Below the pieces are notes generated by a model. It made no database searches. It saw nothing but the letters and a program-made list of their open reading frames with translations, and was not told the DNA's origin. From NCBI RefSeq assembly GCF_014191505.1, contig NZ_JACHWS010000004.1:58654-122653 (forward strand): 64,000 bases of DNA, in the 5' to 3' direction. A program made the translations under genes and the position numbers. Of this stretch, positions 12,007 to 46,882 are shown piece after piece; position 1 is the first letter of the stretch; each line of letters begins with the position of its first letter. The stretch is from Hoyosella altamirensis (GTDB taxonomy: Bacteria > Actinomycetota > Actinomycetes > Mycobacteriales > Mycobacteriaceae).

Positions 12007-12927
12007 CTATTTCGCTGGGTGTACCCGACGCCAATGCTCCGCGATATCGATGCGCCGGGTCACCCACACCTCCTCATTGCCTTGCACGTAGTCGAGGAAG
12101 CGTTCCAGGGCCGCCGCGCGAGAGGGGCGCCCAACTATCCGGCAATGCAAACCCACGGACATCATTTTGGGTGCACCCTCGCGGCCCTCCCGGTACAGCA
12201 CGTCGAACGCGTCGCGCAGGTGCGCGAAGAACTCCTCGCCATTCGCGAAACCTGCAGGTGAGGCAAAACGCATATCGTTCGTTTCCAGGGTGTACGGGAC
12301 AACCAGGTGTTTGACCAGGCTGTCACCCAGGGGAACATCTACCCAGTAGGGAAGGTCGTCCGCGTAGGAATCGGCGTCATAGGTGAAGCCACCGTGCTCC
12401 ACGACAAGCCGCCGGGTGTTTGGCGAATCGCGCCCCGTGTACCAGCCAAGCGGTGCCGCACCCGTGAGGTCGCGAATGATCCCGACTGCCTCGGCCATGT
12501 GGGCTCGTTCGATTTCGGGGTCGAGTTGCTGGTAGCTGATCCAGCGCAGTCCATGGCTGGCGATCTCGTGGCCGAGTTCACCGAAGGCTGCTGCTGCCTC
12601 GGGATTCCGTTCAAGAGCGCGGGCAACCGCGAAGACGGTCAGAGGAAGTCCGCGCCGCTCGAAGATGCGCAGAATCCGCCACACACCAGCCCGGGAACCG
12701 TATTCGTACAGAGACTCCATGCTCATGTGCCGGTCCGGATAAGACTGCGCGAAAACGATGTCCGACAGGAATGTTTCCGAACCGGCATCACCATCGAGCA
12801 CGGAGTTCTCGCCGCCTTCCTCATAATTGAGGACAAACTGGACAGCCACTTTCGCGCCACCCGGCCACTGCGGGTCGGGAGGCTTCTTGCCGTAGCCGAT
12901 CAAATCACGCGGGTAAGTCATGTCCAT
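12007..12927 (-). CDS. puuE: Allantoinase PuuE (polysaccharide-deacetylase-fold, metal-independent allantoinase)
   Basis: 306 aa with strong similarity to PuuE/urate-catabolism proteins (VFAVARALERNPE...HGLRWI). Immediately downstream of allantoicase. Confidence 0.8.
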   Translation of the reverse strand: MDMTYPRDLIGYGKKPPDPQWPGGAKVAVQFVLNYEEGGENSVLDGDAGSETFLSDIVFAQSYPDRHMSMESLYEYGSRAGVWRILRIFERRGLPLTVFAVARALERNPEAAAAFGELGHEIASHGLRWISYQQLDPEIERAHMAEAVGIIRDLTGAAPLGWYTGRDSPNTRRLVVEHGGFTYDADSYADDLPYWVDVPLGDSLVKHLVVPYTLETNDMRFASPAGFANGEEFFAHLRDAFDVLYREGREGAPKMMSVGLHCRIVGRPSRAAALERFLDYVQGNEEVWVTRRIDIAEHWRRVHPAK

Positions 12928-12928
12928 C

Positions 12929-13954
12929 TCACCTCGGCTCCGTCAGTGCGGCAAGACCTGCGGGAGTGAGCGTCCCCCATGCGCGCAGCCTGCTCAGCCC
13001 ACCGTCCGGGTAGATATCCAGCCGAAGATCCGTCACGCCAGCTTCGTCGTCTACACGGAACCGATGCCGGGTATCAGGCTGAAGAGCAGTGCGTGGCAAC
13101 AACTCCACCCACTCGTCTCCGACACGGCCTCGTACCGACGCGGCCCCCGGCGCATTGTGGAGGAAACAGGTGGTGTCCAGCTCTACGACGCGAAGCGCGG
13201 CTTCCGCAGCCAGATGTACCTCAACCCAGTCGTTGCTCGACTCCCATTCACCGGATGGAAACCGCCTGCGGGAGGTTTCCCAGCCATCACCCATCACCCG
13301 CGCGTAGCCCGGCATCAGCAGGTTGTGCGGTGAGCTATAGAACCAGTTGGAGCAGCCAGTGACATGTCCGCCATTTTCGAGTGCGGCGACATCGACGGGG
13401 CCCGCGGTAAGAAACTCGGGATCGGGCGCCCCGTAGCCATGGACGCGTAGTCGGGCGACGCCCCCATCTGGATGCAAAGTCAGCTTGACGTGCGTAAAGC
13501 GCCGCTCATCTGAGACGGGGAACATGTTCGCGGAATCACCAGTCACGGCGGTGCGCAACACAAGTGGCTCCCACTTAGCCTCGTCGCGCAGCGTTTCGGG
13601 GGACGGATAACCGGCGACCGCCGCCGCCTCCAGAGAGATTTCGGGAGGATAGTTACCGGTAAAGAATGCGGTGTCCACAACGACGCCGTGAATCACTCCA
13701 GGCACACCGAGGCGCACGATCGCTTCGTCACATCCAGGTTCACGACGGCGCCTCGTCTCCCACCCGTCGTACACCTGCCCCTTATGGCCAAACGTTGCAG
13801 GGCTATAGCCAGGCGGCAGCGGGCGAATGAGATTCTCTTTCTCAGCGAACGACTCGTCGTTCGCCCACACCACCGAGCCTCCTAAGCTGCGAACCGCAAG
13901 ATCTGGCAGCTGGGTGAACTTCGGCGCGTCAGTCACGGGGCCTCCAGATAACAA
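12929..13954 (-). CDS. alc: Allantoicase (allantoate amidinohydrolase), two tandem allantoicase repeats
   Basis: 341 aa with an internal duplication (VWANDESFAEKENLI... / SNDWVEVHL...) characteristic of allantoicase. Confidence 0.8.
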   Translation of the reverse strand: MLSGGPVTDAPKFTQLPDLAVRSLGGSVVWANDESFAEKENLIRPLPPGYSPATFGHKGQVYDGWETRRRREPGCDEAIVRLGVPGVIHGVVVDTAFFTGNYPPEISLEAAAVAGYPSPETLRDEAKWEPLVLRTAVTGDSANMFPVSDERRFTHVKLTLHPDGGVARLRVHGYGAPDPEFLTAGPVDVAALENGGHVTGCSNWFYSSPHNLLMPGYARVMGDGWETSRRRFPSGEWESSNDWVEVHLAAEAALRVVELDTTCFLHNAPGAASVRGRVGDEWVELLPRTALQPDTRHRFRVDDEAGVTDLRLDIYPDGGLSRLRAWGTLTPAGLAALTEPR

Positions 13955-13955
13955 T

Positions 13956-15164
13956 TCAGGGAATATCGGGCAGCGTTCGCTGCACTAGCTCCTCCAGTAT
14001 CCCCGTGCTGCTGTGAGAACTCAGCGCGACAACGTCTGCCTCCTCGAACGCGCCGCAGTCAAGACCCCGGAGCACCACTGTGGCTAGCGCCTGCGCGGTC
14101 GCGGGTTCGTCGACAACTCCGCCTGACTGGCGCTGCAGGTAACTCTCCAGCCGCGGGGCCGCCACGACTAGTGATTCACGGTAAAAACCGAACGTGGCAA
14201 GCCAACGGGTGACGAGGTGACCGGGGTGCATATCCCAGCCCTGGTAGAAACCGTTCGCGAGGGACCGTGTCACCAGCCGATGGTGATTGCGGAGAGCCGA
14301 CTCCTGCTGTTTCTCGTCGCCTGCAGGGACGATCTGAGTCGATCCGTCACACACCCAAACCCCCGTTTGAGCAGCAGCAGCGAGCATGACTGCTTTCGCG
14401 TGGTCAGCGACCGGGTGGTCGAGCGACTGGTGCTGCGGGGCGATCCCGCAGGCAGCGCTGTAGTCATATGTGCCGAAATGCAGTCCGGTGCAGCGGCCTT
14501 CCGAAGCGTGAAGCGCGGCGGCGAGTGGAACGGCGCCGTCAGCGGCGATCACGGCCTGCGGCGACTCAATCTGCAGCTCAAACTTCAGCGCTCCGTCGCT
14601 GAGGCCGTGAACCCGCTCAAACTCGCGGCAGAGTGCGACAACAGCAGGAACTTGGTCAGCGTGACGAAGCTTGGGCACGGTGAAGGCGAACCCGGCCGGC
14701 ACGCCGCCTGCGCCAGCGAGAACTGCTTCAAGCGTCTGGACGAGCCGGTGACGTTCGTGGGGAGCGAGTCCTTTCGGGCGAATACCGCAGCTCTGCGGCC
14801 CATCTTCCTGGCGCGAGAGTCGTTGCAGCACTTCCCCGGCGCGCAACGCATGCCGATTCTCTATTGCATCATCACGCCAGCCGTATCCGTCTTCAAAGTC
14901 GAACCGTAAATCCTGAATGGGTCTTTCGCTCAATCGGTCAATGACACGGGGGAGTACCCCATGTGCATCAAGCTTTTGGAGCAGATCGTGGTGCGTCTCG
15001 ACCAGGCCAAGAGCCTGTGCCGCCCAGGCTTGTGTGATGGCTTCGGATGCGTCCGCGCCGCTGACATACACGGTGTGCGGCGGCTGGCCCAGGCGAAAAG
15101 GGGTGGGGTAGTGCTGGTCGAGAAATTGGTCAACAGGGGCGAGCAAAGCGTCGAGATTGATCAT
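13956..15164 (-). CDS. HpcH/HpaI aldolase / citrate-lyase-beta (CitE) / malyl-CoA-lyase-like family protein, function in glyoxylate/ureidoglycolate disposal inferred
   Basis: 402 aa. ELQIESPQAV and GLHFGTYDYSAA correspond to the Mg-binding Glu and Asp motifs of CitE/HpcH enzymes. First gene of the citE-like / alc / puuE operon. Confidence 0.5.
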   Translation of the reverse strand: MINLDALLAPVDQFLDQHYPTPFRLGQPPHTVYVSGADASEAITQAWAAQALGLVETHHDLLQKLDAHGVLPRVIDRLSERPIQDLRFDFEDGYGWRDDAIENRHALRAGEVLQRLSRQEDGPQSCGIRPKGLAPHERHRLVQTLEAVLAGAGGVPAGFAFTVPKLRHADQVPAVVALCREFERVHGLSDGALKFELQIESPQAVIAADGAVPLAAALHASEGRCTGLHFGTYDYSAACGIAPQHQSLDHPVADHAKAVMLAAAAQTGVWVCDGSTQIVPAGDEKQQESALRNHHRLVTRSLANGFYQGWDMHPGHLVTRWLATFGFYRESLVVAAPRLESYLQRQSGGVVDEPATAQALATVVLRGLDCGAFEEADVVALSSHSSTGILEELVQRTLPDIP

Positions 15165-15946
15165 TTCTTTTGACTGCTCGCCTTCAGCGTCGCTTCTAGC
15201 GAAGCGAGAAGGTCGGAGACGTCCTTATCGAGACTTTCACCGGCGGGTTCAGGTGGTGTATAGGACTCGCCTTGTGCGAGTTTGTTCTCGATGAGTTCAC
15301 GCAGCTTTTCCTGGTATTCGTCGGCATGCTGGTCGGGCTCGAAATCCTTCGTCATAGAGTCGACGACTTGATTGGCCATGTCGAGTTCGGCCTTGCTGAT
15401 CTTCGCCTCTTTCTCGAGTGAGGAGAATTCGGGATCGCGGATCTCGTCGGGCCACAGCAGCGTCTGCACCATCAGCGTTTTTCCTTTGACGCGCAATGCG
15501 GCAAGTCGTGTCTTGCTGCGCAGTGCGAAATGCGCGATCGCGATGCGGTCAGTCCCGGCGAGAGTCTTCTGCAGCAGTTGATATGCCTTGGTTGATTTGC
15601 CGTCGGGTTCGAGATAGTACGCACGATCGAACATGACCGGGTCGAGCTGGTCAGCGGGTACGAACTCGACGACTTCGATTTCGCGGGTGATGTCTTTGGG
15701 TATGCTCGCCAGGTCCTCATCAGTGATGATGACCATTTCGTCATCATCGGAGGTGTACGCCTTCGCTATGTCCCGGAATTCGACCTGCTTTCCGCATTCT
15801 TCGCAAATCCGGCGATATCTGATGCGCCCACGGTCCTCTGCGTGAACCTGGTGGAAACTGATGTCGTGGTCTTCTGTCGCCGCGTACACCTTCACGGGCA
15901 CGTTGACGAGCCCGAAAGTGAGTGCACCTTTCCATATTGAGCGCAT
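15161..15946 (-). CDS. ku: Ku protein (non-homologous end-joining DNA-end-binding protein)
   Basis: MRSIWKGALTFGLVNVPVKVYAAT is the canonical bacterial Ku N-terminus. The track ORF starts upstream at a TTG, so I chose the conserved Met. Confidence 0.9.
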   Translation of the reverse strand: MRSIWKGALTFGLVNVPVKVYAATEDHDISFHQVHAEDRGRIRYRRICEECGKQVEFRDIAKAYTSDDDEMVIITDEDLASIPKDITREIEVVEFVPADQLDPVMFDRAYYLEPDGKSTKAYQLLQKTLAGTDRIAIAHFALRSKTRLAALRVKGKTLMVQTLLWPDEIRDPEFSSLEKEAKISKAELDMANQVVDSMTKDFEPDQHADEYQEKLRELIENKLAQGESYTPPEPAGESLDKDVSDLLASLEATLKASSQKK

Positions 15947-15998
15947 GATCTTAGTATTGCCGACAACCTGTTCCGGGGGTAGCCAACGGAAGGCCTGT

Positions 15999-18251
15999 AT
16001 GTCGAAACTGGTCATCGACGGGTATACCGTTGCACTCACGCATCTCGACAAAGTGCTCTACCCCGAAACCGGAACCACCAAGGGTGAGATTATCGCCTAT
16101 TACGAGGCGATAGCTGCGGTGATGCTGCCCCACATTCGCGACCGCCCAGCCACCCGAAAGCGCTGGCCGGACGGGGTGACTGCGACGCCATTTTTCGAGA
16201 AGAACATACCGTTCTCCGCCCCAGACTGGATTCCGCGTCTTCCCCTCGAGCACAAGTCACGCACGGTGACGTATCCGCTGCTCAATTCCACTGCCGCGCT
16301 CGTGTGGATTGGTCAGCAGGCGGCACTGGAAGTGCATGTGCCCCAGTGGATCGCGCGGTCGGGAAAGCCGGGGCCAGCTAACCGGATCGTGTTTGACCTC
16401 GACCCCGGGCCAGGCACGACGCTGACGGACTGCGCGGTTGTCGCGAAACGTATTCGGGAGATCTTCCGCGAGATCGGCCTGGCTGTCTATCCGGTCACGT
16501 CAGGCAGTAAGGGACTGCACCTCTATGTACCGCTCGTAGATCCCGTGAGCTCCGCGCAGGCGTCCCGTGTTGCGCAATCCGTTGCGGCGAGTCTCGAACG
16601 TGCGCTCCCCGAACTGGTTACCGCCACCATGTCCAAAGCGGCGCGTCCCGGCAAAATCTTCGTCGACTGGAGCCAGAACTCAGCAGCGAAGACAACGATT
16701 GCGCCGTATTCACTACGGGGCCAGCCGCACCCGTTCGTCGCGGCCCCCCGATCCTGGGAAGAACTCGACGACCCGCACATCGAACACCTGACGTTTTCGG
16801 AGGTGCTGCGCCGAGTCGATGAATTCGGGGACCTGCTGTCGCCTGAGCGACCACGGCCAAGCGAGTCAGGCCCCGATCGGCTTGCTCTGTACCGGGCGAA
16901 ACGCGACCGCGCGCTAACCCCGGAACCAGTCCCGGACCCGGGAGAGAATCTGAAAGATGACGAAAGCGAGCCGCTATTCGTCATCCAGGAACATCACGCG
17001 CGCCGACTGCACTACGACTTCAGGCTCGAACGCGACGGTGTGCTCGTCTCGTGGGCGGTGCCGAAGAACATCCCCGACACCCCGGATGTCAACCACCTTG
17101 CTGTGCAGACCGAAGAACATCCGATGGAGTACGGGAGCTTCGCGGGGGAGATTCCGCGTGGCCAGTACGGCGCGGGCAAGGTGGAGATCTGGGATCGCGG
17201 CACATACACGCTGGAAAAGTGGCGCGACGATGAGGTGATCGTCGAACTTCATGGGAAACGCGCCCAAGGCAGATATGCGTTGATCAAAACGGGCGGCAAG
17301 AACTGGCTGATGCACAAGATGAAGGCGCCAGACGCGACTCGCCGCGTGCGCGGCATACCGCGGGGCTTGTCTCCGATGCTTGCCAAGTCGGCGCCGATAA
17401 AGCGGCTTGATGCCGGGGAGTGGGCATTCGAGGGCAAGTGGGACGGTTACCGGGCGATCGCTGAGATCAGCGAGGGCACGGTGCGGCTGCTGAGCCGCAG
17501 CGGGATTGATGTGACGCGCGACTACCCACAACTGCGGCAACTCAGCGAGGGCCTGGGTGGTCATGAGGTGGTCCTCGATGGCGAACTAGTCGGTTTCGAC
17601 GAAGAGGGGGTGACGAGCTTCGCGCGGCTCAGGGAAGCACCACGTGAGGCGACCTACCTGGTTTTCGATGTGCTTTATCTCGACGGCACCTCGCTGACGC
17701 GCAAACCCTGGTCCGACCGGCGGAAGGTGCTCGAAGCCATTGCTGGTCTCTTGCGGTGTGCGAGTGTTCCGCCGCTGCTCACGGGTTCGGCCGAGGAAGC
17801 GATCGCTGAGTCGGTTCAGCGAGGCTGGGAAGGCGTGATCGCGAAGCGCCGCGACTCGATTTATCTGCCCGGTCAACGAGGCACCGCCTGGCTCAAGCAC
17901 AAGAACTGGCGGACCCAAAACGTCGTCGTGGGTGGCTGGAAACCAGGCGAAGGAGGCCATGGTGGCGGCATCGGCGCCCTACTGGTGGGAGTGATGCGGG
18001 ATGGGAAGCTTCGCTACGCGGGACGCGTAGGAACGGGTTGGTCGGAGAAACAGCGCGCCGAACTGCTTGAGCGGCTGACGCTTCTGGTGCAGGAAAAGAG
18101 TCCGTTCGCCGACTGGGCAAGCGAACCTGAGTCGTCTGAAACACAATTGCGTGATGTTGTATGGGTCAGGCCCGAGATGGAGGGGACCGTGCGGTTCCAG
18201 GAGTGGACCAGCGCGCGACGGCTGCGCCACCCCGTGTGGATGCGTAGCTAA
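15999..18251 (+). CDS. ligD: Multifunctional ATP-dependent DNA ligase D (polymerase/primase, 3'-phosphoesterase and ligase domains in mycobacterial order)
   Basis: Pol domain (MSKLVIDGYTVALTHLDKVLYPE...), PE domain (QEHHARRLHYDFRLE...), ligase domain with the KxDG adenylation motif (EGKWDGYR). Divergent from ku. Confidence 0.9.
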   Translation: MSKLVIDGYTVALTHLDKVLYPETGTTKGEIIAYYEAIAAVMLPHIRDRPATRKRWPDGVTATPFFEKNIPFSAPDWIPRLPLEHKSRTVTYPLLNSTAALVWIGQQAALEVHVPQWIARSGKPGPANRIVFDLDPGPGTTLTDCAVVAKRIREIFREIGLAVYPVTSGSKGLHLYVPLVDPVSSAQASRVAQSVAASLERALPELVTATMSKAARPGKIFVDWSQNSAAKTTIAPYSLRGQPHPFVAAPRSWEELDDPHIEHLTFSEVLRRVDEFGDLLSPERPRPSESGPDRLALYRAKRDRALTPEPVPDPGENLKDDESEPLFVIQEHHARRLHYDFRLERDGVLVSWAVPKNIPDTPDVNHLAVQTEEHPMEYGSFAGEIPRGQYGAGKVEIWDRGTYTLEKWRDDEVIVELHGKRAQGRYALIKTGGKNWLMHKMKAPDATRRVRGIPRGLSPMLAKSAPIKRLDAGEWAFEGKWDGYRAIAEISEGTVRLLSRSGIDVTRDYPQLRQLSEGLGGHEVVLDGELVGFDEEGVTSFARLREAPREATYLVFDVLYLDGTSLTRKPWSDRRKVLEAIAGLLRCASVPPLLTGSAEEAIAESVQRGWEGVIAKRRDSIYLPGQRGTAWLKHKNWRTQNVVVGGWKPGEGGHGGGIGALLVGVMRDGKLRYAGRVGTGWSEKQRAELLERLTLLVQEKSPFADWASEPESSETQLRDVVWVRPEMEGTVRFQEWTSARRLRHPVWMRS

Positions 18252-19708
18252 CTTGGGGTTGACGCCCCGAAGCCAGCAGTTGCCCCGGACTTTTCGTGCC
18301 GGTGGTGCCTGATCGCCCGCGCTGTTCGAGACGCGCTGCGGGCGGAAGGCGGAACGACATTGCCACCGTCGGCAGGGATAGCCAGATTGCCTCGTTGCGG
18401 GTGTCTCTTTGCATTGTGGCGCGAGCGAAATGCGCGCGAACCGAGGATCGCGAGGACGGACACGACGATGACGAGGTAGATCAGGGGGTACGCCAAGCGA
18501 ACGGTCGTGACGAGGGCAGGATTGGAAGGCAGAAGCATGAAAGTACCGATGGCGTAGAACACGCCCGCCGGTTGCGTGATATCGATGAACCGCTGAATCC
18601 AGCAGGCCACTGCGAGGAACAACGCGACAGGAAGCGCCCACATGACGCGGTGGCGCGAGGTCGCCGCGTAGTGACACAGAATTGCGAGCAGCGGAATGAA
18701 CCACACCCAGTGGTGGCCCCAAGAGAATGGCGAAATCATGCAGGCGGTGAGTCCGGTAAGCGTCACAGCAAGTAGCTCTTGGCCTGACCGATGAGCGAGC
18801 CACATCGCGGTGAGTCCTAGCGCAAGTACCACCATCGTGACTGCTGCGACGCCGAGACGTGACGGCTCGGGTGTGCCGAGAATTTGTGCGAGTGCTCCTG
18901 TTATTGATTGATTCGCGGGGGAGTCGATTCTGCCCACCCGTTCTGCCTCGAACAACTTGCCCTGCCAGAATGTCAGCGCATCCCGGGGAATCACCGCAAA
19001 CCCGATTGCCACTGTGGCAAGGAAAGCGACAACCGCCGTAGTAAACGCACGCCACTGCTTCGCAAGAAGCAGGTAGATAAAGAAGAAGGCTGGTGTCAGC
19101 TTGATCCCCGCGGCGATGCCAACGGTCCATCCGCGCAAGACGCTGCCTTTCGGGCGGGTGAGATCCCAGACGATAAGCAACATCAGGAAGATATTGATCT
19201 GTCCGTACCAGATCGTGGTGCGGACAGGTTCGAGCCACGTCGCAATCACCGTCAGATACGCGCTGATGACCAGCAACTGCCAGCCTGCCCGGTAGCCGAG
19301 CGCGCGCCACGAGAGAACAATAGTGAGCCACAATGCCGCGATCGTCGCGCCGGCCCACACGCCAACCAGCCAGGCCTTGTTCAGCCCGGCGAGGACGGTG
19401 AAGAGCACCGCGGCGAAAGGCGGATAAGTGAAGGGCAGATTACCGATGACGTTGCCCTCGTAAAGAGCCTGCCCTTCACGAACCAGGGAGCCGCCAGCCG
19501 CGTACACCTGAACGTCGACCATGTTCTGGAACAGGCCCCAGTGCGGGGCGCCGACCGGAATTACGCGAATATGGAAAGCAACGACGAACAGGGCCGCAAG
19601 GATAAGCCCGGCGTGCGCCCACCAGGGCAGGCGAAAGCGCCTTAGACCACCGCTGCTGTGGGCAGAATCTGCCATTCCGACTGCCATCGAACCCCCTGGA
19701 CTGAGCAT
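18248..19708 (-). CDS. Polytopic membrane glycosyltransferase, GT87/DUF2029 family (PimE / Rv2181-like alpha-mannosyltransferase)
   Basis: 486 aa with about 11 TM helices and an FTYPPF motif in the first extracytoplasmic loop, typical of polyprenol-phosphate-mannose-dependent GT-C enzymes. Its stop overlaps the ligD stop convergently. Confidence 0.55.
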   Translation of the reverse strand: MLSPGGSMAVGMADSAHSSGGLRRFRLPWWAHAGLILAALFVVAFHIRVIPVGAPHWGLFQNMVDVQVYAAGGSLVREGQALYEGNVIGNLPFTYPPFAAVLFTVLAGLNKAWLVGVWAGATIAALWLTIVLSWRALGYRAGWQLLVISAYLTVIATWLEPVRTTIWYGQINIFLMLLIVWDLTRPKGSVLRGWTVGIAAGIKLTPAFFFIYLLLAKQWRAFTTAVVAFLATVAIGFAVIPRDALTFWQGKLFEAERVGRIDSPANQSITGALAQILGTPEPSRLGVAAVTMVVLALGLTAMWLAHRSGQELLAVTLTGLTACMISPFSWGHHWVWFIPLLAILCHYAATSRHRVMWALPVALFLAVACWIQRFIDITQPAGVFYAIGTFMLLPSNPALVTTVRLAYPLIYLVIVVSVLAILGSRAFRSRHNAKRHPQRGNLAIPADGGNVVPPSARSASRTARAIRHHRHEKSGATAGFGASTPS

Positions 19709-19769
19709 CCCGCGCTCGATAGCAGATTAGCGCCTGGATGTGACAATTCCGAACCTGGCGACGTGAGTT

Positions 19770-20504
19770 TTGAATTTCGCATTCACAATGTGGGGTATGG
19801 CAACGACACGAAAAGCCGCGAAAGCGACACGGCACCTCACCGATGATCAGCTCGTTGAGCTCTCCGAAGCGCTGAAGGAAGGCAAACGTGCCACGGTCTA
19901 CCTGCGCGAGCCATTGCCGGGGCTGGGTCTCGAAGCGGGTGCGTCAGCCCGCGTCGTCTCGATAGACGGCAACACAGTGATCGTGCGCCCTCGCGGCGTG
20001 GACGATGAAATTCCGTTCGAAGCCGAAGAGTTGCGACGGACGAAAGCGGCCCCACCTGAACCCCCGAAACCGGCGAAGTCGCAGGCACCGCGCAAGCGTG
20101 CGCAGAAAACTCAGGCGCAAGCAGCGCCCGGGAAGTCAGCCCCAGTTAAGCAAGAAGCAGTGGAGGCGGCGCCCACGGAATCGCGAGCATCGCGAGCATC
20201 GGCTGCCCCCCGGCGTAAGTCTGCGCCAAAATCCGCCGCATGCGCGATTACTCTGCGCGCGGACGAGACTGGCTCGTGGACGGTCGAGGTGGAACGCCCC
20301 AGTGGGCAGCAGCTCAAACCCGCGTCTGTGACGCCGGACGCGGTCTTGCGTGCTGTCGAGGCACTGGGGCACCCCGCCGCTTTAAGAACCGCGCAAACCG
20401 CTCTCGACGCGGCGCGCGACGCGGCGGCACGGCGCGTTGAAGAGCTGAAACAGAAGCTGCTGGAGGCCGAGTCGGCGCTGCACTCCCTCAAGGACAAGAA
20501 GTAA
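19770..20504 (+). CDS. Hypothetical basic protein with a histone-tail-like Ala/Lys/Pro-rich central region and a C-terminal coiled coil
   Basis: 244 aa with low-complexity KAAPPEPPKPAKSQAPRKRAQKTQAQAAPGKSAPVKQ reminiscent of HupB/H1-like tails. Lies 40 bp upstream of ligC on the same strand. Confidence 0.5.
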   Translation: MNFAFTMWGMATTRKAAKATRHLTDDQLVELSEALKEGKRATVYLREPLPGLGLEAGASARVVSIDGNTVIVRPRGVDDEIPFEAEELRRTKAAPPEPPKPAKSQAPRKRAQKTQAQAAPGKSAPVKQEAVEAAPTESRASRASAAPRRKSAPKSAACAITLRADETGSWTVEVERPSGQQLKPASVTPDAVLRAVEALGHPAALRTAQTALDAARDAAARRVEELKQKLLEAESALHSLKDKK

Positions 20505-20545
20505 CTCGCTGACGTGGCCACGCATCTGATGCAAGGATTGGCAAT

Positions 20546-21604
20546 GTGGATCTTCCGGTCATGCCTCCTATCGCGCCGATGCTGGCCAAGGCCGCCGGTG
20601 CCGTCCCTGAACAGGCGGACGATGCCGCGGCCGAACCCACCTGGCTGTATGAGCCCAAATGGGACGGTTTCCGTGCGATCGTGTTCCGGGACGGAGACGA
20701 CGTAGTAATCGGCTCTCGTGGCGGGAAGGACCTCTCCCGTTACTTTCCCGAGGTCGTGGCTGCTGTTCGTGACGAGCTGCCAGGCCGGTGCGTCGTCGAC
20801 GGCGAAATCGTCGTGCCGCAGAGCGCCGAAGGGGGCGCGCGACTGGACTGGGAAGCCCTTTCGGCGCGCATTCATCCCGCTGAACGCCGGGTGCGGCAGC
20901 TTTCCGTTGAGACACCGGCCTTGTTCGTGAGTTTCGACCTTCTCGCGCATCACGATCGCTCGCTGCTTGACGCCCCTTTCGGCGAACGGCGGGGGATGCT
21001 GACCGAACTGGCCGCAGCCGAGATCGGTCAGGCTAGGTGCCACGTGACCAGGGCAACTAATGACGCCGCGGTCGCGCAGCACTGGTTTGAGACATTCGAA
21101 GGCGCCGGTCTCGACGGCGTGATCGCGAAGCGGCTGGCGTCGCGGTACCTGCCTAACAAGCGGGAGTTGGTTAAGGTCAAGCATTCCCGTACGGCAGAGG
21201 CGGTCGTGATCGGGTATCGGCCGCACAAAAGCCAGCCGGGCGTCGGGTCGGTCCTCCTTGGCCTGTACGACGGAGACGAGCTCAAGATGGTCGGCGGAAT
21301 GTCTGCTTTCACCAATGCCAAGCGAATCAAAATTCAAGAGGATCTTGACGTGATCCGCTCGGCGGACCGCGCGGAAGGTGAGGCTTCACGCTGGCGTGCG
21401 TCCGCTGACGCGGGCTTCGTCCCGGTGCGGCCTGAGCGAGTGGCTGAAGTTGCGTACGACCAGATGGAGGGCGATAGATTCCGGCATGCGGTGCGGTTCT
21501 TGCGATGGCGGCCAGACCGGGATCCCCGATCGTGCACCTATGACCAGTTGGAGGTGCCGGTTCGCTATGACTTGGCTGACGTCCTCGAAGGGAGCGCCCG
21601 GTGA
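20546..21604 (+). CDS. ligC: ATP-dependent DNA ligase, LigC type
   Basis: 352 aa with the KxDG motif (EPKWDGFR), OB domain and the mycobacterial LigC length. Stop overlaps the next gene. Confidence 0.85.
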   Translation: MDLPVMPPIAPMLAKAAGAVPEQADDAAAEPTWLYEPKWDGFRAIVFRDGDDVVIGSRGGKDLSRYFPEVVAAVRDELPGRCVVDGEIVVPQSAEGGARLDWEALSARIHPAERRVRQLSVETPALFVSFDLLAHHDRSLLDAPFGERRGMLTELAAAEIGQARCHVTRATNDAAVAQHWFETFEGAGLDGVIAKRLASRYLPNKRELVKVKHSRTAEAVVIGYRPHKSQPGVGSVLLGLYDGDELKMVGGMSAFTNAKRIKIQEDLDVIRSADRAEGEASRWRASADAGFVPVRPERVAEVAYDQMEGDRFRHAVRFLRWRPDRDPRSCTYDQLEVPVRYDLADVLEGSAR

Positions 21605-22629
21605 CGGCTGAACTGCTCGATATTGACGGTATCGAAGTCCGGTTGTCGAATCCGGACAAGATCTACTATCCGGCGCTCGGATCGAAGGGCGGGACGAAAC
21701 GCCACCTCGTCGACTACTACCGCACGGTAGCGGAGCGCGGCGCGATTCTTACGGTCCTGCTTGACAGGCCCACGAACCTCCAGCGTTTTCCGGACGGCGT
21801 CGAGGGGGAAGAGATCTATCAGAAGCGGGTCCCGGCGCGACGGCCGCACCATGTCGAATCGTGCACGGTGACTTTTCCGTCCGGCCGGACGGCCGAGGCC
21901 TTACGCGTCAAGAGTGCCGCTGATGTCGTGTGGGCGGCCAATCTCGGTACCGTGACGTTCCATCCTTGGCCGGTCGTGTGTAGAGACACCGACCGTCCTG
22001 ATGAGCTTCGGGTCGATCTCGATCCTCAGCCGGGTACTGGCTTCGCGGAAGCCCGAGTCGTCGCGCGCGACGCGCTGCTGCCGGTACTCAATGAACTTGG
22101 GTACGAGGGTTTCGTCAAAACCTCGGGCGGACGTGGGCTCCACGTGACCATTCCGATCGAACCCAAATGGGACTTCATCGAAGTGCGCCGGGCAGGTATC
22201 GCGCTGGCGCGCGAGGTTGTGCGCCGGAGCGAGGACCTAGCCACAGCGGCGTGGTGGAAGGAAGAACGCGGGAAACGGATATTCCTCGATTACAACCAGA
22301 ACGCTCGGGACCGGACAGTCGCGTCAGCGAACGCGGCGCGTAAAACCCCGATCGCGACTGTTTCAGCTCCACTGACGTGGGACGAACTCGACGATGCCGA
22401 CGCGGACGACTTCACGATCGCCACTGTTCCCGCCCTGCTCAGTGAGCGCGGTGATCCGCATGCGGACCTCCACAAGACGTCGTACTCGATACAAACACTG
22501 CTTGACTGGTTTGCCCGTGACGAGGAGCAGGGCGAGGGGGAACTGCCGTATCCGCCGAACTATCCGAAAATGCCTGGCGAACCGAAACGAGTTCAGCCGA
22601 GCCGAGACCGAGACCGGTTGAGGGACTGA
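21601..22629 (+). CDS. Stand-alone LigD-like primase-polymerase (Prim-PolC), the LigC partner in base-excision-repair gap filling
   Basis: 342 aa homologous to the LigD polymerase domain (RFPDGV, HVTIPI motifs) but with no ligase or PE domains. Translationally coupled to ligC. Confidence 0.8.
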   Translation: MTAELLDIDGIEVRLSNPDKIYYPALGSKGGTKRHLVDYYRTVAERGAILTVLLDRPTNLQRFPDGVEGEEIYQKRVPARRPHHVESCTVTFPSGRTAEALRVKSAADVVWAANLGTVTFHPWPVVCRDTDRPDELRVDLDPQPGTGFAEARVVARDALLPVLNELGYEGFVKTSGGRGLHVTIPIEPKWDFIEVRRAGIALAREVVRRSEDLATAAWWKEERGKRIFLDYNQNARDRTVASANAARKTPIATVSAPLTWDELDDADADDFTIATVPALLSERGDPHADLHKTSYSIQTLLDWFARDEEQGEGELPYPPNYPKMPGEPKRVQPSRDRDRLRD

Positions 22630-46052: not shown

Positions 46053-46882
46053 AGCGACGACCTCCTGAGGACGAACAGCGCGGCAGCCAGCATCATCAGA
46101 CAGAGTGCAACCGAAACGCTGGCGGCCGCAGCAGCATTGGGTCGCGCGGCCAGATCGATAGCGGAGAAGAGCCGCACCGCCATCACCGGCAGCGGTTCAG
46201 GGTGCGGACGGCCGAGCAGCCGTGCCACCTCGAATGAGCCGAACGAATAGACGAAAGTGATCATGGCTGCAGCGGCAAGCGCGGGTGTCGCGAGGGGCAA
46301 TGTGACGAGCCGGAACCGTTGCCATCGACCAGCGCCGAGCACCGCGGCTGCCTCCGAATAGCCAGTCACGCGCGTTGCGAGCGCTGCAGCAACAACGAGC
46401 GCTATGAACGCGGATTCCTTCCACGTGAACTCCGCGATCACAGCGATCCACCAGCGCCCGCCGACCAGCTGCGGCCACGTTGCAGAGTCCATCCTGAATA
46501 CGCGGGCAAGGAGTCCGGCGTCGGAAAGGAGCAGTCCGATCGCGGCGGCACCGATCAGGTGCGGGATGGGAATGGTCAACGTCGCGAGCGCCGCGACGAC
46601 CCTTCCATTCGCGACGATCGCCAGGGCGGCGGCAAGCCCTATGAGGGACGCCAGAATTGTCGACGATGCGGCTATCGCCAGTGACAGCAGAGTGGCCGTG
46701 ATCAGGTCATCGCTCTGTGCCGTGAACGTCTGGGTACTGAACGCCGGTTCACCGACAAGAGGCATCAATCCGAATGCCTGTAGGGCAACGGTGCCAAGCC
46801 CTGCGACAAGCACGATTGCAGTTGGGACGAGTGCAGGGAGGAGCAGCGCTGTCGCTCGTAACCGTGCCGTCCGCCCTGACAT
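46043..46882 (-). CDS. ABC transporter permease
   Basis: TM-rich. The track ORF runs to 47074, so I chose the internal Met (MSGRTARLRATALLLP) at 46882, which overlaps the SBP stop by 1 nt. Confidence 0.65.
   Translation of the reverse strand: MSGRTARLRATALLLPALVPTAIVLVAGLGTVALQAFGLMPLVGEPAFSTQTFTAQSDDLITATLLSLAIAASSTILASLIGLAAALAIVANGRVVAALATLTIPIPHLIGAAAIGLLLSDAGLLARVFRMDSATWPQLVGGRWWIAVIAEFTWKESAFIALVVAAALATRVTGYSEAAAVLGAGRWQRFRLVTLPLATPALAAAAMITFVYSFGSFEVARLLGRPHPEPLPVMAVRLFSAIDLAARPNAAAAASVSVALCLMMLAAALFVLRRSSLWR

Follow-up and report, generated by a model that had tools for sequence, protein, structure and literature searches.

Adjacent Ku-LigD and LigC-Prim-PolC genes in Hoyosella altamirensis: probably a vertically inherited juxtaposition of two separate repair modules

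Work on mycobacteria has described two ATP-dependent ligase systems, Ku with LigD in non-homologous end joining (NHEJ) and LigC with the primase-polymerase Prim-PolC in short-gap filling and nick sealing (PMC5663958, PMC7442782, PMC8068969). Mycobacterial Prim-PolC is known to prefer short gaps and ribonucleoside triphosphates (rNTPs) and to interact with LigC and with enzymes of base-excision repair (BER) (PMC5663958, PMC7442782). LigC is also a documented back-up NHEJ ligase, as cited in PMC5124664 and PMC8068969. In M. smegmatis, prim-polC (MSMEG_6301) adjoins ligC1 and ligC2, and the mycobacterial prim-polC/ligC operon is linked in some species to BER genes and not to ku or ligD (PMC5663958, PMC8068969). 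Streptomyces has kuA-polK and ligC-polR as separate conserved loci (PMC5124664; Hoff et al. 2016). Here, we examine a 64,000-nucleotide stretch of the Hoyosella altamirensis genome (contig NZ_JACHWS010000004.1, positions 58,654 to 122,653; hereafter the window), in which orthologues of both gene pairs stand in one neighborhood at window positions 15161-22629. Our analysis makes it probable that two distinct actinobacterial repair modules, each characterised before, came to lie side by side in the lineage of Hoyosella sensu stricto and have been passed down vertically in this arrangement, which would then be neither a mobile island nor a single regulon. The features of the locus, called from open reading frames (ORFs) and from Pfam and NCBIfam matches, are as follows.

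15161-22629, both strands: six-gene layout, in order Ku (minus), three-domain LigD (plus), GT87 (minus), basic A/K/P-rich protein (plus), LigC (plus), Prim-PolC (plus)
15161-15946, minus strand: ku, NHEJ DNA-end-binding protein, 261 amino acids (Pfam Ku PF02735, E = 5e-53; TIGR02772)
15947-15998, no strand: divergent ku/ligD spacer, 52 bp (four-lineage comparison)
15999-18251, plus strand: ligD, three-domain ligase D, 750 amino acids (PF21686, PF13298, PF01068 and PF04679 in that order; NF007210)
18248-19708, minus strand: GT87-family polytopic membrane glycosyltransferase gene, convergent with ligD (Pfam GT87 PF09594, E = 8e-51)
19797-20504, plus strand: gene for an A/K/P-rich protein of probable DUF6319 family, 235 amino acids, isoelectric point 9.8 (homologues carry PF19844; 100% identical to an H. 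altamirensis protein)
20546-21604, plus strand: ligC, stand-alone ATP-dependent DNA ligase C, 352 amino acids (NF006078, PRK08224)
21601-22629, plus strand: prim-polC, stand-alone AEP primase-polymerase, 342 amino acids (full-length match to M. smegmatis Prim-PolC structures)

A first-pass annotation of this DNA had reported Ku/LigD and LigC/Prim-PolC in this interval, and its description of the gene content holds. All six genes are present on the strands listed above. The two modules, which it had placed about 2.3 kb apart, are separated by 2294 bp from the ligD stop to the ligC start, and the DNA between them does hold a GT87 membrane glycosyltransferase gene and a gene for a basic A/K/P-rich protein. 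The overlap of convergent ligD and GT87 stop codons that it noted is also present in the sequence, as CTAA over 18248-18251 (ligD TAA at 18249-18251; GT87 TAG, on the minus strand, at 18248-18250). Chance is not at issue for the gene identities because the family matches are strong and full length. The translations also show catalytic motifs: both ligases have KWDG, both AEPs have DLDP, and the 3'-phosphoesterase domain has HYDFRLE. Judged by these matches and motifs, both ATP-dependent ligase systems of mycobacteria have intact orthologues in Hoyosella; the components are further members of known families, and their sequences do not suggest a new activity. No further Ku, ligase, or AEP genes were found in the window by tblastn, and an Rfam scan of the whole window returned zero matches.

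Ku aligns with TIGR02772 over model positions 1-258 of 259 at 311.7 bits (cutoff 150) and is 98.9% identical to the H. subflava protein and 93% identical to that of Hoyosella sp. YIM 151337. The family match starts at residue 37 of a 296-residue, TTG-initiated ORF reaching 16051. Because the match begins there and the H. subflava annotation has the same 261-residue length, the likely start of ku is the ATG at 15946 (MRSIWKG...) and not the TTG at 16051. The likely start of ligD is the ATG at 15999, which gives 750 amino acids as annotated in H. subflava. These two ATG starts leave the 52-bp divergent spacer. LigD scores 1079.5 bits against NF007210 (PRK09632; cutoff 989) and has the mycobacterial-type order POL (Prim-Pol), PE (3'-phosphoesterase), and LIG (ATP-dependent ligase), with PF21686 at ORF residues 73-325, PF13298 at 376-476, and PF01068 plus PF04679 at 505-795. 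Its catalytic motifs are intact in the translation: EGKWDGYR (ligase motif I, KxDG), VFDLDPGPG (AEP DxD), and HHARRLHYDFRLE (PE His/Arg cluster). By orthology with the mycobacterial proteins, Ku would bind double-strand-break ends and recruit LigD, whose POL, PE, and LIG domains would process and seal the ends in NHEJ. The adjacency of ku to ligD across the spacer is consistent with this predicted role of Ku.

The spacer itself is ~88% conserved between Hoyosella lineages with coding DNA ~74% identical. On the ku side, the hexamer AATACT stands 6 nt ahead of the ATG; on the ligD side, the gene is preceded by GGAAGG, a Shine-Dalgarno sequence. A motif like the Hoyosella hexamer, CATACT-N6-ATG, precedes ku in several mycobacterial loci. 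The AATACT at ku suggests a putative promoter and a leaderless or near-leaderless ku transcript.

LigC matches positions 1-348 of the 350-position NF006078 model at 477 bits (cutoff 296) and contains PF01068 and PF04679 only (adenylation and OB domains), with EPKWDGFR as motif I. It is 95% identical to the H. subflava protein, 67% to that of Rhodococcus, and 64% to Mycolicibacterium 'DNA ligase C1'. The gene starts 41 nt past the DUF6319 stop, and its own stop overlaps the start of prim-polC (GTGA). This linkage of LigC to a stand-alone AEP polymerase recurs in Rhodococcus, Mycolicibacterium, and Speluncibacter. The polymerase scores 501 bits against the M. smegmatis structures 6SA0 (query residues 4-335) and 5OP0, but 99 bits against the POL domain of M. 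tuberculosis LigD (2IRU), and its C-terminal element LPYPPNYPKMPGEP (LPYPPNYPKMPGEPxRVQPS) is conserved in the alignment. By these comparisons, the stand-alone polymerase of the window is a true Prim-PolC orthologue, of which the short-gap and rNTP preference and the interaction with LigC and BER enzymes would be expected. By the same orthology, LigC and Prim-PolC would jointly fill gaps of 1-3 nt and seal nicks in BER, and LigC would double as a back-up NHEJ ligase.

Two smaller features of these genes were seen. The 3' end of prim-polC overlaps a convergent hormone-sensitive-lipase-family gene by 37 nt (22593-22629), and the same 37-nt overlap is present in H. subflava (L081) and in a Logan metagenome contig (L089). 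In addition, apart from the paralogous ligase motifs shared by the LigD ligase domain and LigC (17430-17460 with 20651-20681, and 17829-17869 with 21113-21153), which are 76-84% identical at the nucleotide level over 31-41 nt, the region has no sizeable direct repeats. These shared motifs could in principle mediate recombination between ligD and ligC.

How unusual is it for the two modules to be neighbors? We scanned one genome per species with Ku as the anchor. Among the best 80 of at least 565 matches, 79 were loci from Mycobacterium or Mycolicibacterium with 64-67% Ku identity, and in 58 of these 79 each flank was at least 9 kb long. Within the available flanks (up to 10 kb), a stand-alone LigC or Prim-PolC was found near Ku at none of the 79 mycobacterial loci. 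LigD was adjacent to Ku in 15 of them and 1-10 kb away in 37. From the other side, Ku or LigD was not found within 10 kb of ligC-prim-polC in Rhodococcus opacus, Mycolicibacterium psychrotolerans, or Speluncibacter jeojiensis. The first-pass annotation had stated that the two pairs are at separate loci in M. tuberculosis and M. smegmatis; with this contrast to mycobacteria, the literature (PMC5663958, PMC8068969), the 79 Ku loci, and the three ligC-prim-polC loci in other genera all agree. Going by these gene neighborhoods, the juxtaposition is unusual among the taxa sampled.

The closest described relative of the first module is mycobacterial Ku-LigD (M. tuberculosis Rv0937c/Rv0938; M. smegmatis). 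The Hoyosella Ku and POL-PE-LIG LigD are both above the NCBIfam equivalog cut-offs, and their genes are divergent with a short spacer between them, an arrangement shared by the 15 mycobacterial loci in which ku and ligD are adjacent. However, Ku is 64-67% and LigD ~53-55% identical to the Mycolicibacterium orthologues, and the coupling of ku to DUF6986 and allantoicase genes and the convergence of ligD with GT87 set the Hoyosella locus apart; neither neighbor is present at the 79 mycobacterial loci. The second module resembles M. smegmatis LigC/Prim-PolC (MSMEG_6301-6302/6304; structures 5OP0 and 6SA0) in its full-length Prim-PolC match, which includes the C-terminal element, in a LigC above the PRK08224 cut-off, and in the adjacency of the genes (PMC5663958). 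In M. smegmatis, however, prim-polC lies upstream of ligC1 and ligC2 (PMC8068969), whereas the Hoyosella order is ligC followed by prim-polC with the GTGA overlap, as in Rhodococcus, Speluncibacter, and M. psychrotolerans. Hoyosella also differs in having one LigC, no fpg, polA, or uvrB nearby, and Ku and LigD 2.3 kb away. The core NHEJ-like loci of Streptomyces (PMC5124664) show that actinobacterial NHEJ-like genes come in small modules of two genes, with chromosomal positions and combinations that differ by lineage and with ligC always beside its polymerase. Streptomyces keeps its two core loci apart and has a variable, ligase-only LigD, whereas Hoyosella has the fused mycobacterial LigD and both modules in one neighborhood.

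Within the genus, the arrangement is conserved. The complete genome of H. subflava DQS3-9A1 (CP002786.1) has the same six genes in the same order and on the same strands, and it is colinear with window positions 11601-32628 (~21 kb) at 94.3% nucleotide identity. The Logan metagenome contig, at ~80% protein identity, carries the start of ku followed by ligD, GT87, DUF6319, ligC, prim-polC, and lipase. A third genome, Hoyosella sp. YIM 151337 (L001), has the syntenic locus without ligC. A clean deletion extends between the start codons of ligC and prim-polC (L001:5380-5530, corresponding to about 20505-21640 of the window), so that prim-polC stands directly behind the ligC upstream region. No LigC from YIM 151337 was found among the LigC homologues listed, down to 62% identity, and the strain seems to have retained Prim-PolC but not the ligase that partners it. 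Loss of ligC is the parsimonious reading because YIM 151337 and the Logan lineage lie at about the same distance from the window and ligC-prim-polC is also found in Rhodococcus. By comparison of gene orders, every lineage of Hoyosella sensu stricto seen shares the arrangement (YIM 151337 minus ligC), and an annotated, complete public genome already contains it. The first-pass annotation had allowed that novelty would be low if the arrangement were the common ancestral state in the genus, and this is what H. subflava, the Logan contig, and, minus ligC, YIM 151337 indicate.

The sister clade reveals what the locus looks like without repair genes. Hoyosella sp. G463, Lolliginicoccus suaedae, and L. 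levis carry DUF5701, deacetylase, allantoicase, DUF6986, GT87, DUF6319, lipase, WS/DGAT, acyltransferase, and M13 peptidase genes at this locus, without Ku, LigD, LigC, and Prim-PolC and without YkuD (L084:6067-8365, L085:6012-8233, and L086:6029-8249, respectively). Since the same locus has both GT87 and DUF6319 where no repair gene is present, these two are, on this distribution, backbone genes and not repair genes. The repair genes therefore occupy two separate slots, one on each side of this backbone. It is the stop codon of GT87 that overlaps the DUF6986 start in these three genomes, in the position held by ku in Hoyosella. Searching the sister-clade loci by tblastn (E < 1) revealed no repair-gene remnants, and comparing the locus junctions by blastn-short gave nothing informative. 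Ku, LigC, and Prim-PolC of Lolliginicoccus or G463 were also missing among the matches listed (lists pre-filtered by shared words or patterns), though orthologues would be expected above the cut-offs. This hints, only suggestively, that the sister clade may be without all four repair genes genome-wide.

Do the two modules nevertheless behave as one regulatory unit? The strand pattern across the six genes is -,+,-,+,+,+. From this gene geometry, we infer at least four transcription units: ku-DUF6986-allantoicase-deacetylase (minus), ligD (plus), GT87 (minus), and DUF6319-ligC-prim-polC (plus). The last three genes, with their 41-nt spacer and GTGA overlap, may form one unit. Downstream, ligD runs into the convergent GT87 gene, which separates it from the ligC unit. 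On the other side, the ku stop overlaps the start of the DUF6986 (HpcH/HpaI-like) gene as ATGA at 15161-15164, and a minus-strand string at 12007-15946 continues from ku and DUF6986 to allantoicase and a polysaccharide-deacetylase-family gene, the latter two after 1-nt gaps. The same string is present in H. subflava and YIM 151337. Thus, ku appears to be translationally coupled to ureide/purine-catabolism-like genes and not to repair genes.

Regulatory motifs gave a similar picture. No SOS box (GAAC-N4-GTTC) was found in 15161-22629; the 64-kb window has one, at 46739, where chance predicts 1.15. With one mismatch allowed, the RecA-NDp motif was likewise absent from 15161-22629 and has two matches in the window, at 46.7 and 47.8 kb, against 0.73 expected. 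A site at 46736-46757 that resembles both motifs (SOS-like GAACGCCGGTTC and RecA-NDp-like TGTCGGTG...) is part of the coding sequence for an ABC-transporter permease and was judged a chance match. A sigma-70 consensus scan of the region returned zero promoter matches, and terminator-like sites were at the shuffled expectation. The strands and the absence of a known damage-response or sigma-70 motif in the region do not describe a single operon or a co-regulated block. The co-regulation put forward by the first-pass annotation is therefore not borne out, given at least four transcription units, the coupling of ku to ureide genes, and no SOS box, RecA-NDp motif, or sigma-70 consensus.

The same annotation had described the locus as one consolidated island, and this is also unsupported, as strands alternate and GT87 and DUF6319 form a backbone that is present without the repair genes in the sister clade. 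We found no tRNA, integrase, or flanking repeats at 15161-22629 beyond the LigD/LigC paralogy motifs. GC content at third codon positions (GC3) is uniform at 0.67-0.72, and the repair genes, at 0.68-0.72, match neighboring genes. The repeats, tRNA, and GC3, together with the persistence of GT87 and DUF6319 where the repair genes are absent, do not describe a mobile genomic island.

Outside the genus, R. opacus offers a reference point for the history of the locus. It has ligC followed by prim-polC, then YkuD on the plus strand and M13 peptidase on the minus strand, in the same order and orientation as Hoyosella, with the markers at 69-76% nucleotide identity. In both, ligC-prim-polC lies ~5 kb upstream of YkuD, and the convergent M13 peptidase gene follows. 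This synteny, and the fact that YkuD is also missing in the sister clade, favors an ancestral position of ligC-prim-polC and a deletion of the module in the sister clade. For ku-ligD, a metagenome scan anchored on DUF6986 returned 80 loci with DUF6986-allantoicase pairs, with neither Ku nor GT87 upstream, and gave no polarity.

Why, then, do two repair modules stand 2.3 kb apart? One reading, which builds on the co-regulation suggested in the first-pass annotation, is that selection joined NHEJ with LigC/Prim-PolC so as to be co-inherited and co-regulated, for example in stationary phase or desiccation. Their proximity has been kept in three Hoyosella lineages diverged to ~80% protein identity, neither module is present at the sister-clade locus, the match lists hint at correlated loss, and the back-up role documented for LigC would give such a union a rationale. 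However, conserved gene order among congeners is expected under plain vertical descent, and YIM 151337 tolerates loss of ligC alone. Selection for a joint cluster would also have to accommodate alternating strands over at least four transcription units, a convergent GT87 gene between ligD and the ligC unit, a ku gene coupled to ureide catabolism, intervening backbone genes unrelated to repair, and no shared known damage-response motif, and we regard it as unlikely. We also give little credence to the related proposal that the two modules are one evolutionary unit in Hoyosella and Lolliginicoccus, kept together or absent together, reflecting interdependence of Ku/LigD NHEJ and LigC/Prim-PolC in vivo. 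If this were true, YIM 151337 would imply that Prim-PolC can work with another ligase, such as LigD, which would blur the mycobacterial division between NHEJ and BER. Horizontal acquisition of the 7.5-kb block in one piece would account for the absence of four repair genes from an otherwise syntenic sister-clade locus. Yet the sister clade has GT87 and DUF6319, which in Hoyosella fall within the block, so two separate events would be needed. Since, in addition, mobility marks are absent, GC3 is that of the neighbors, the placement of ligC-prim-polC with respect to YkuD and M13 still resembles that in Rhodococcus, and the nearest homologues are ordinary Mycobacteriales orthologues, a one-piece island is highly improbable.

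A more serious candidate, though still an unlikely one, is that ku-ligD and ligC-prim-polC were translocated independently into the GT87/DUF6319 backbone in the ancestor of Hoyosella sensu stricto and were never deleted from the sister clade. In overlapping the start of DUF6986, the GT87 stop of the sister clade does exactly what the ku stop does in Hoyosella, no repair-gene remnants are found at the sister-clade locus, and the other metagenome DUF6986-allantoicase loci are without Ku or GT87 upstream. However, the position of ligC-prim-polC relative to YkuD and M13 is common to R. opacus, and YkuD is missing in the sister clade, which favors deletion for ligC-prim-polC at least, and it is improbable that related modules would land 2.3 kb apart by chance. 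We prefer the vertically inherited juxtaposition of two separate modules, with a later loss of ligC in YIM 151337 that would have run from start codon to start codon. Several points weigh against it. The ku-ligD module may either have moved in beside GT87 or have been deleted from the sister clade, and neither the junctions nor the DUF6986-anchored scan sets the direction. Both modules are absent together at the sister-clade locus, a coincidence that purely independent modules do not explain. An operator might lie in the spacer between ku and ligD, given its unusual conservation, and some other regulator may control the modules jointly. Finally, the survey was narrow: it took in the best 80 of at least 565 Ku matches and three non-Hoyosella ligC loci, and Nocardia, Gordonia, Tsukamurella, Dietzia, and others lay outside the survey of Ku/LigC context.

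The arrangement has little importance beyond annotation, and gene neighborhood alone should not be taken as co-regulation. Its only mildly interesting residue is a set of natural genotypes: all four repair genes in H. altamirensis and H. subflava, a deleted ligC in YIM 151337, and none at the syntenic locus, apparently none genome-wide, in Lolliginicoccus and G463. These are of modest comparative value, as they could be used to study the dependence of Prim-PolC on LigC and the mutual back-up of the two pathways.

The two backbone genes between the modules were also characterized. The GT87 protein scores 173.5 bits against the Pfam cutoff of 25 and has ~8-9 hydrophobic segments. At 206 bits against a cutoff of 413, it is not the PimE equivalog. 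An alignment of GT87 C-termini showed variable, basic tails and no signal. For the A/K/P-rich protein, homologues with E = 1e-38 to 1e-27 carry a precomputed PF19844 assignment, and their alignment has 31 invariant columns; a local Pfam scan of the window protein itself returned no PF19844 at E <= 1. In its linker, 40 of 70 residues are A, K, or P. In an AlphaFold2 model (pLDDT 75), a KOW/SH3-like barrel at the N terminus is followed by the disordered A/K/P-rich linker and then, at the C terminus, by a sheet plus a long helix; this model gave only weak matches to the PDB (E >= 0.018). We considered this protein as a DNA-binding link between the modules and rejected the idea: the KOW/SH3-like barrel is generic, its PDB matches are no better than the E value above, and its contexts in Gordonia and Rhodococcus are unrelated to repair. 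Family members are present in Hoyosella, Lolliginicoccus, Gordonia, and Rhodococcus, where public records name them 'translation initiation factor', 'NfeD family protein', or hypothetical. These mixed names probably come from the low-complexity linker and weak matches of the barrel.

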